A DNA stretch of 64,000 bases from a virus. Its lineage: Duplodnaviria; Caudoviricetes. Location: IMG/VR virus record IMGVR_UViG_3300025389_000011; one strand, 5' to 3'. The notes under the pieces were generated by a model. It searched no databases and had not been told where the DNA came from. It saw only the letters and a list, made by a program, of their open reading frames with translations. Positions 36,827 to 37,490 of the stretch are shown one piece after another. Both the position numbers and the translations under genes were made by a program. Position 1 is the stretch's first letter; the number at the start of each line of letters is the position of its first letter.

Positions 36827-36905
36827 GTTTTTAATTCCTTTTTAAAACGTTATTATAATTTTTATTATCTAAGATGTATGTGATTGTAGTCACAAAGATT
36901 GAAAG

Positions 36906-36929
36906 AAAGCCCACATATAAGTGGGCTTT
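36906..36929 (-). terminator. Intrinsic terminator closing the tmRNA transcript
   Basis: AAAGCCCAC/GTGGGCTTT 9-bp stem followed by CTTTC on minus strand. Confidence 0.8.
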
Positions 36930-37090
36930 GGTATTTTCTGTTTCGAGGTATATCCTACCCAATAGTGGCTTACGCCGCTAAAGAATAAACGCTATCGTTT
37001 GCATTTATAAGTTTTGCTTGATTTACGGTCATCGCCTACCGAGTTGTCCATTTACGTACTTATCACCCTGTCGAAACCAAGTCAGGCCCA

Positions 37091-37213
37091 TCAAAAATTA
37101 TCATTCCATAGCTGTTCTAATTCAGGATCTACTGGGCCATGATCGGCAACAAGTGCCCATACATTTACTACTACCCAGATAATACCTATTGAATAAAACC
37201 AATGCCATTCCAT
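37091..37213 (-). CDS. 40-aa membrane microprotein inside the tmRNA intervening sequence: MEWHWFYSIGIIWVVVNVWALVADHGPVDPELEQLWNDNF
   Basis: ATG at 37213, TGA at 37093-37091, AAAGG RBS 6 nt upstream directly after the CCA; occupies 123 of 135 IVS nt. Confidence 0.7.
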   Translation of the reverse strand: MEWHWFYSIGIIWVVVNVWALVADHGPVDPELEQLWNDNF

Positions 37214-37295
37214 ATAATACCTTTTGGTGGACCTGGCGGGAGTCGAACCCGCGTCCAGAATGCCTTTCGGCTCACTTCATACAACAATAACTCTC

Positions 37296-37324
37296 AGTAT
37301 ATATTTATTTGATAATACTGTCAA
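37296..37324 (-). promoter_or_regulatory. tmRNA promoter: sigma70 consensus with embedded TAAATA
   Basis: TTGACA (37324-37319)-17 nt-TATACT (37301-37296); TAAATA at 37307-37302. Confidence 0.8.
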
Positions 37325-37490
37325 TAACGGATTTACCCGTTATTTTACGGCTTCTGTATGCTTACCGTCAAGACTTTTTTTCAATAACTTAAACCAAAGT
37401 TTTTTAACTTTTTCTAAATTATGTTCAAACTCAGCCTTGTTGAGTTTCATGATTAGTTTTTTAACTTTCATAATAAACCCTCCTTGACTA

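Follow-up and report, generated by a model that had tools for sequence, protein, structure and literature searches.

Protein genes whose messages are bounded by stable RNAs are familiar from tRNA-punctuated mRNAs, both in the mitochondrial punctuation model and in bacterial tRNA operons that include a protein gene, for example tufB. The 23S rRNA of Coxiella burnetii contains an intervening sequence (IVS) that carries the open reading frame (ORF) of S23p, which is apparently not made in vivo (PMC4990558), and some group I introns in tmRNA genes carry homing-endonuclease genes (PMC11915505). Two-piece tmRNAs, in turn, are produced from a single precursor that is cut by tRNA-processing enzymes (PMC11915505, PMC9004378). 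As to what their spacers contain, a tRNA-Ala and a repetitive element are the sole contents recorded in the 2025 tmRNA database paper (PMC11915505), and in full-text searches, with PMC11915505, PMC9004378, PMC4131195, and PMC10117765 read, we found no published description of protein genes in tmRNA spacers; such a gene is apparently undescribed in print. Small genes within these spacers would be missed or called without their context, as the spacers are regarded as disposable linkers and annotation takes tmRNA genes to be non-coding. Here we describe a phage tmRNA gene whose spacer is almost filled by an ORF. We consider it probable that this ORF is a real 40-aa gene within an intact-looking two-piece tmRNA unit, that a hairpin spacer has been turned into a gene slot, and that the peptide is translated from the precursor or from the released spacer.

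Genes for a large terminase (7e-110), a helicase, and further phage proteins mark the window, i.e., the whole 64,000-nt stretch of viral DNA analyzed here, as phage DNA; it comes from a freshwater phage, and related IMG/VR contigs reach 330 to 360 kb. On the minus strand, ARAGORN called a permuted tmRNA with the tag ANDSVYSLAA at 36879..37317, and Rfam returned full-length model matches to both tmRNA_permuted (RF04321; 138.8 bits against a gathering score of 47) and beta_tmRNA (RF01850; 134.4 bits against a gathering score of 84). Both ARAGORN and the sequence itself place the 3′ tRNA domain with its CCA before the 5′ domain starting at G1, which is the permuted order. The acceptor piece (37225..37289, minus strand), recognized by ARAGORN as the 3′ tRNA domain and aligned to RF04321 from 37286, consists of a P2 strand, the T arm with a canonical T loop, the 3′ acceptor strand, and ACCA; it ends in ...GGUCCACCA at 37225, and its 5′ end, or the transcription start, would lie at 37289. 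The coding piece (36930..37089, minus strand; Rfam and ARAGORN) starts with GGGCCUG at 37089 and contains the 5′ acceptor strand, a D-like loop, and the tag frame, which occupies 37002-36970 (minus strand) from the resume codon GCA onward, is intact, and ends in LAA. Pairing of G37087 with U37231 provides the G3:U70 alanine identity pair. Upstream lies a sigma-70-type site, TTGACA-17-TATACT (37296..37324, minus strand), to which we ascribe a putative promoter function by its sequence: it matches the consensus in 11 of 12 positions, is the best site of the region, and has -35 and -10 blocks that are invariant in the related loci L201 and L211 despite different flanks. The unit is closed by an intrinsic-terminator-like hairpin (36906..36929, minus strand), a palindrome followed by a T-run (CTTTCTTTC), which was called on the plus-strand list and corresponds to the 3′ hairpin of RF01850; between promoter and terminator, the minus strand holds no comparable promoter. 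The two pieces are separated by an IVS of 135 nt (37090..37224, minus strand), between the CCA (37225) and G1 (37089), which by analogy with known two-piece tmRNAs would be excised and thus be absent from the mature tmRNA.

Direct reading of the sequence bears out what a preliminary description of this DNA had stated, namely that the 135-nt spacer is nearly all ORF, with the coordinates and the 40-aa product quoted there. The CCA is followed immediately by AAAGG (37224-37220), the ATG (37213-37211) stands 11 nt after the CCA, and the TGA (37093-37091) is separated from G1 by a single U, which delimits a candidate membrane-peptide gene at 37091..37213 (minus strand). An ORF of such length arose in only 6 of 1,000 shuffles of the IVS (p = 0.006). 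AlphaFold2 (AF2), run from the family alignment described below, models the peptide with helices at residues 5-22 and 30-39 (mean pLDDT 82.6), a pattern that fits a single transmembrane helix followed by a conserved acidic, amphipathic C-terminal helix and agrees with the one transmembrane helix and the acidic tail suggested previously. Searches of Pfam, PHROGs, NCBIfam, PADLOC, and the ESM Atlas gave no match of known function, and the product can be described no further than as, according to the model, a membrane-inserted micro-protein. In type I toxin-antitoxin systems of the Hok/TisB kind, a small hydrophobic peptide is combined with a controlling cis or trans antisense RNA. When compared with these systems, our locus has the hydrophobic peptide and a pairing between 5′ and 3′ ends, with no PADLOC or Pfam match. 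An antisense promoter-like site, TTGAAT-18-TATAAT (37189-37218, plus strand; 10 of 12 consensus positions), is located in the 5′ part of the ORF and faces the Shine-Dalgarno (SD) sequence and the acceptor piece, but it is probably a chance occurrence in AT-rich DNA, where the region contains 9 such sites against 2.9 expected.

An exhaustive phmmer search of 1.84 billion representatives placed the peptide in a small family. Besides the exact peptide (at least 13 contigs) and one relative of 88% identity, which were all that a word-based search retrieved, there are seven more-distant relatives of 37-50 aa (E 4e-18 to 1e-3; P0002-P0009 without P0005), and the family as a whole consists of peptides of 37-42 aa with identities of 46 to 88%. 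The contigs that encode the peptide derive from JGI samples such as 3300025781 and 3300006127 and from ENA ERZ272719xx. Its members, which carry no family name, share six invariant columns and the motifs MEWHWFY..G, WAL, and DPE[IL]E[KQ][LM]W[NQ]DNF. We rejected P0005 (1426 aa), whose match to the PVDPELE motif is inflated by repeats, as well as the product encoded in the spacer of L089, which has a similar architecture yet no detectable similarity to the window peptide. Members of the family are found within permuted-tmRNA spacers in the window, in L201, in L211, and in L429-431, the latter being 50% identical and located in a different tmRNA with a 29-aa tag. Others lie directly upstream of a permuted tmRNA (L433 and L435) or stand alone with no tRNA-like neighbor (L428 and L436), and one is situated between tRNA-Ala and tRNA-Gly (L432:1411-1708), with the same start layout as in the window, CCA-A(n)GG-6 nt-ATG. 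This last ORF lies 14 nt past the CCA and 6 nt ahead of the next tRNA, and its leader pairs with its own last two codons; small ORFs punctuated by tRNAs may be a wider habit of these phages.

The family alignment displays a consistent pattern of constraint: pS exceeds pN in 21 of 21 pairs (Nei-Gojobori), omega is 0.24 between the window and L201 and 0.1-0.7 for the other pairs, where dS is partly saturated, substitutions by codon position follow the order 3 > 1 > 2, and all indels comprise whole codons. The C-terminal motif is kept even where no stem partner exists, showing that it is selected as protein. Judged by these sequence comparisons, the IVS ORF is a genuine, selected protein gene. 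The preliminary description had named conservation of the ORF with dN/dS < 1 in related phages as the check on its proposal, and frameshifts or stops in homologous IVSs as the finding that would speak against it; the former is what we found, with the family present in spacers under this excess of pS, and clear decayed copies were not seen.

To place this gene among other phage tmRNAs, we used an ORF-blind sample of 120 IMG/VR loci, retrieved by exact identity to 32 nt from the T arm and acceptor end, in which ARAGORN called 103 permuted tmRNAs with 81 distinct spacers. We counted as cargo any ORF that starts at most 16 nt from the CCA and fills at least 75% of the spacer. By this definition, 26 of the 81 distinct IVSs contain cargo, among them 14 of the 16 that are at least 120 nt long, with a shuffle p ≤ 0.015 for each cargo-filled spacer of this long class, while the antisense strand of the sample held no ORF at 80% spacer coverage. 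Cargo is strongly associated with an SD-like 5′ end (21/5 versus 10/45 among the 81 IVSs; odds ratio 18.9, p = 9e-8). A second scan, biased to SD-like starts, returned many more cargo types. The frame of the cargo ends 1 nt before G1 in 40 distinct cases, against 9 that stop earlier. Many IVSs of 62-90 nt have read-through frames that begin with TTG or GTG; these are probably due to chance and were left out of the cargo.

The cargo is diverse, and the codon comparisons indicate that its multi-member families are under purifying selection, with omega between 0.08 and 0.6. Specifically, omega is 0.10 between the cargo genes of L235 and L257, where 33 of 50 changes fall at third positions, 0.12-0.18 within a 62-aa four-cysteine family, and 0.08-0.6 among transmembrane peptides of 22-24 aa. 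The products of L235 and L257 belong to Pfam DUF2061 (72-76 bits, cutoff 23.1, full model) and that of L083 to phrog_13558 (1.6e-12), and the product of L051 comes near DUF6552 with 23 bits, below the cutoff. In two further loci (L230 and L246), a 115-nt IVS is open in one frame throughout and has no ATG, GTG, or TTG start; its CCGRGCEGCVW...Y motif resembles what we take to be the Pfam "Oxidored-like" motif. Among cultured phages of Stenotrophomonas and Xanthomonas (Bhz51, BUDD, JGB6, QDWS359, and DLP_6), the spacers of 31-127 nt have the closing stem and the TGAT end described below and carry no convincing cargo, so that there is no laboratory system at hand among these Xanthomonadaceae phages; a frame in JGB6 that starts 1 nt past the CCA, without an SD, was treated as chance.

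We then turned to the two ends of the spacer, since these supply the start and stop signals of the ORF. In the minimum free energy (MFE) fold of the window, the acceptor stem (37235-37229 with 37083-37089) is followed by a partial pairing of ACCA with UGAU and then by a closing stem, in which AAAG pairs with UUUU (37224-37221 with 37094-37097) and UAUUAU with AUGAUA (37219-37214 with 37099-37104). The 5′ strand of this stem (37214..37224, minus strand; MFE pairs and comparison of the 81 IVSs) includes the SD-like AAAGG (37224-37220) and the spacer to the ATG, and its 3′ strand (37094..37104, minus strand; MFE pair list and compensatory change) is formed by the last codons, N-D-N-F. Across the 81 phage IVSs, with 48 distinct 5′ 9-mers among them, the first 9 nt pair with the 9 nt ahead of the last four bases in 8.5 of 9 positions, against 5.4 of 9 in mismatched controls in which the 3′ strand was taken from another locus. 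Moreover, the window (UUAU/AUGA) and L429 (UCUU/AAGA) differ by a compensatory change that turns an N codon into a Q codon (AAU -> CAA) while the stem is kept. The window's own duplex is weak (-2.9 kcal/mol, with means of -8.2 kcal/mol for cargo spacers and -11.2 kcal/mol for the others), and so is the SD (AAGG) that it sequesters. As for the other end, the last four bases are TGAT in 54, TAAT in 25, and TGAC in 2 of the 81 distinct phage IVSs, and the conserved UGAU before G1 (37090..37093, minus strand; 81-IVS comparison) is the source of the stop codon in the window.

The same design is present in bacteria. We compared 16 permuted tmRNAs of bacteria, most of which are Betaproteobacteria of the Rhodocyclales type (Azonexus, Dechloromonas, Thauera, Accumulibacter, and relatives); their IVSs measure 3-43 nt and none contains an ORF, in line with the earlier view of bacterial spacers as short, non-coding linkers. 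Those of at least 24 nt are just a hairpin, CAAGGGCA...TGCCCTT.GAT, i.e., an AAGG...CCTT design, and the ORF-free bacterial spacers of 24-43 nt end in GAT or GGT ahead of G1. These comparisons change the reading of two elements. The AAAGG had been described as a ribosome-binding site, and it does stand right after the CCA, but it is not purpose-built: it forms the 5′ strand of a closing stem kept with and without an ORF, also in bacteria. Similarly, the TGA is indeed positioned 1 nt before G1, yet it is part of a T[GA]AT end found in 79 of 81 phage IVSs, coding or not. Since both the stem and the end motif also occur in ORF-free spacers, we regard AAAGG and the stop as ancestral RNA features that were co-opted by the cargo. 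In this scenario, the spacer would have descended from the short hairpin that parts the two pieces in bacterial tmRNA genes, and in this phage lineage small genes would have come to occupy the hairpin loop; AAGG, once just the 5′ side of the stem, would now act as Shine-Dalgarno sequence, the old UGAU as stop, and the last cargo codons as the 3′ strand of the stem.

Because the ORF lies inside a single promoter-terminator unit, any translation must use the pre-tmRNA or a piece cut from it, and we infer transcription from the tmRNA promoter, excision of the IVS, and translation of its ORF. RNase P would cut at G1, 1 nt past the stop, and 3′ processing would trim to the CCA, 11 nt before the ATG, so that ribosomes might make the peptide on the precursor during transcription or on the spacer after its release, as in tRNA-punctuated mRNAs. 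If, instead, exonucleases trimmed the acceptor end back from a cleavage within the spacer, the SD would be missing from the excised RNA and only the precursor would be translatable. In either case, an initiating ribosome would cover ACCA and a terminating one the stretch from G1 to about G12; this overlap with ACCA and G1 suggests that translation would momentarily interfere with the folding and processing of the tRNA-like domain. It is tempting to go one step further and to speculate, as the preliminary description did, that a ribosome bound at the SD prevents the tRNA-like domain from folding or being processed, and vice versa, and that the two form a switch, with a regulated trade of peptide against tmRNA maturation. 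A 30S subunit at an ATG 11 nt past the CCA would reach the end of the acceptor stem in addition to ACCA, a ribosome on the stop codon would sit on G1 and the bases after it, and the acceptor stem is prolonged by the helix between the SD and the final codons. The weaker closing duplexes of cargo IVSs (-8.2 versus -11.2 kcal/mol) and the preference of the cargo frame for ending 1 nt before G1 (40 versus 9) point in the same direction. However, the argument is geometric, and steric overlap is no proof of regulation; the stem and UGAU are older than the cargo, so that their positions need no regulatory explanation, and the stem in the window is weak. We therefore treat a regulated switch as a tentative possibility.

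A second class of cargo has no stop within the IVS. Most of the 12 IVSs of at least 100 nt without an in-IVS ORF carry an ORF that reads through G1 (L011 family and L003). The class comprises L011, L016, L018, L075, L084, and L114, which have a 101-nt IVS, together with L221 and L285, L229 and L245, L003, and L303. Its ORFs start at +11 behind AAAGGA, out of frame with the conserved TGAT, and their frame continues through G1 into the coding piece. The L011 family encodes a CPxC...HKC peptide, with pS (0.06-0.24) above pN (0-0.065), and the L221/L285 product resembles the N-terminal half of the window peptide. When cut by RNase P, messages of this class would become non-stop mRNAs. Conceivably, then, cargo expression is coupled to trans-translation, whereby the RNase P cut, next to a stop that lies 1 nt before the cleavage site or in a frame that has no stop in the spacer, would create an end-of-message or a true non-stop mRNA and the very tmRNA from which it came would set the fate of the product, either released or tagged and degraded. 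We think this unlikely on present evidence, although, if true, the phage would thereby time or dose its small membrane and zinc-ribbon proteins by an inherent mechanism.

The surroundings of the slot indicate that its contents move. L211 has an acceptor piece and spacer identical to those of the window, joined to a different coding piece with a 27-aa tag, whereas L201 combines a 92% identical spacer, whose cargo has 88% aa identity, with a much more divergent tmRNA body. Tags differ in length: those of the window and of its bacterial relatives measure ~10 aa, many of those in L001-L120, L211, and L429 are very long (23-32 aa; e.g., ANADTFDFSAMSFTGNTV...ALAA or ANANT..VTVSGKN.KFSART...), and coding pieces with either kind of tag can follow the same acceptor piece and IVS. 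A 43-aa basic ORF (37340..37471, minus strand), which immediately precedes the tmRNA promoter, is homologous to the cargo in the spacers of L253 and L273 (56% identity, E = 4e-13), so that the same small genes evidently enter and leave the slot. The closest relatives, L121-L127, are similar at the DNA level (~80% identity) exactly as far as 37489, the stop of an upstream 195-aa gene, beyond which the 43-aa ORF, the tmRNA, and a 303-aa protein are replaced in those relatives. Since, in addition, only 4 of 80 relatives of the 195-aa protein have a tmRNA within 4 kb, the tmRNA is not syntenic. Taken together, cargo and tmRNA modules evidently recombine through conserved flanks.

Such mobility raises the question of whether the peptide gene is only a hitch-hiker in a tolerated site, silent or barely translated, with its conservation stemming from other locations or from recent transfer. 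The occurrence of the peptide family outside IVSs, the association of the same IVS with different tmRNA bodies (L211 and L201), and the precedent of the Coxiella 23S IVS, whose S23p is apparently not made in vivo (PMC4990558), would agree with this. Nevertheless, purifying selection is evident when the IVS copies of the window, L201, and L429 are compared with one another, and likewise in cargo families that have been seen in IVSs only, cargo goes along with an SD at the right spacing, and the sampled IVSs showed no clear copies decayed by frameshifts or internal stops, which makes a silent passenger improbable. It is even harder to believe that the tmRNA is defunct and that its halves are kept merely as a promoter, processing, and terminator scaffold for the peptide gene. 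The one locus that lends this some color is L201 (L201:1444-1884), which has the same cargo. Its tmRNA departs from the usual T loop, with GGCAGTG in place of TTCGACT, shows corresponding changes in the D-like loop, and is either a decaying tmRNA or a co-varying variant. The window tmRNA, on the other hand, scores far above both Rfam thresholds over the full models, and its G3:U70 pair, T loop, and terminator are all regular, as is the tag frame, which is intact and ends in LAA. Finally, although the ORF has only 40 codons, lies in AT-rich DNA, and would find a UGAU stop and a stem-strand "RBS" present anyway, that it is a chance open frame in a non-coding, excised linker can be dismissed almost entirely in view of the shuffle test (p = 0.006), the 46-88% identical family in unrelated contexts without a tmRNA stem (with L428 and L436 excluding an artefact of shared RNA structure), the excess of pS over pN in 21/21 pairs with indels in threes, and the 14/16 long IVSs filled by sense ORFs as opposed to 0 by antisense ones.

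If spacers regularly serve as gene slots, a phage tmRNA gene would be a bifunctional transcription unit, with one strong promoter for a ribosome-rescue RNA and for a small protein that is often a membrane peptide. This would be a compact natural design for the co-expression of an RNA and a peptide, a new place to search for phage micro-proteins involved in host takeover, and an opportunity to test whether translation and stable-RNA processing compete or are coupled. It would also bear on annotation pipelines and on how cargo moves among phages by recombination in conserved tmRNA flanks. Should the proposed translation hold, a "throw-away" segment of a stable RNA would double as a messenger.

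Among the described systems, group I introns in tmRNA genes are alike in that a protein gene sits inside a segment removed during tmRNA maturation; they are, however, self-splicing, interrupt the T loop, and carry an ORF for intron mobility, whereas no intron is present here and the cargo consists of diverse small proteins of host-interaction type. In tRNA-punctuated mRNAs, as would be the case here, the ends of the message are set by processing of flanking tRNA-like structures (compare L432), but in our locus the flanking "tRNA halves" belong to one tRNA-like domain and are paired across the gene. The closest analogue is the 23S rRNA IVS with S23p, likewise a stem-closed spacer with an ORF inside that is excised from a stable-RNA precursor and leaves its host RNA as two paired pieces. 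It is an analogue only, since the host RNA here is tmRNA rather than 23S rRNA and the peptide has no Pfam, NCBIfam, or PHROG match; RNase P and 3′-end processing would be expected instead of RNase III, and in place of a single, decaying ORF family, the phage cargo comprises many unrelated families under purifying selection, each with an SD. In its RNA, the locus most resembles the betaproteobacterial two-piece tmRNA (RF01850; RF04321), with which it shares the order of acceptor piece, IVS, and coding piece, the tRNA-like domain, the tag type ANDxxxxLAA, and the closing stem formed from AAGG after CC(A), with GAT or GGT ahead of G1. Where the sampled betaproteobacterial IVSs are 3-43 nt long and free of ORFs, though, the phage IVS extends to 135 nt and holds a selected gene.
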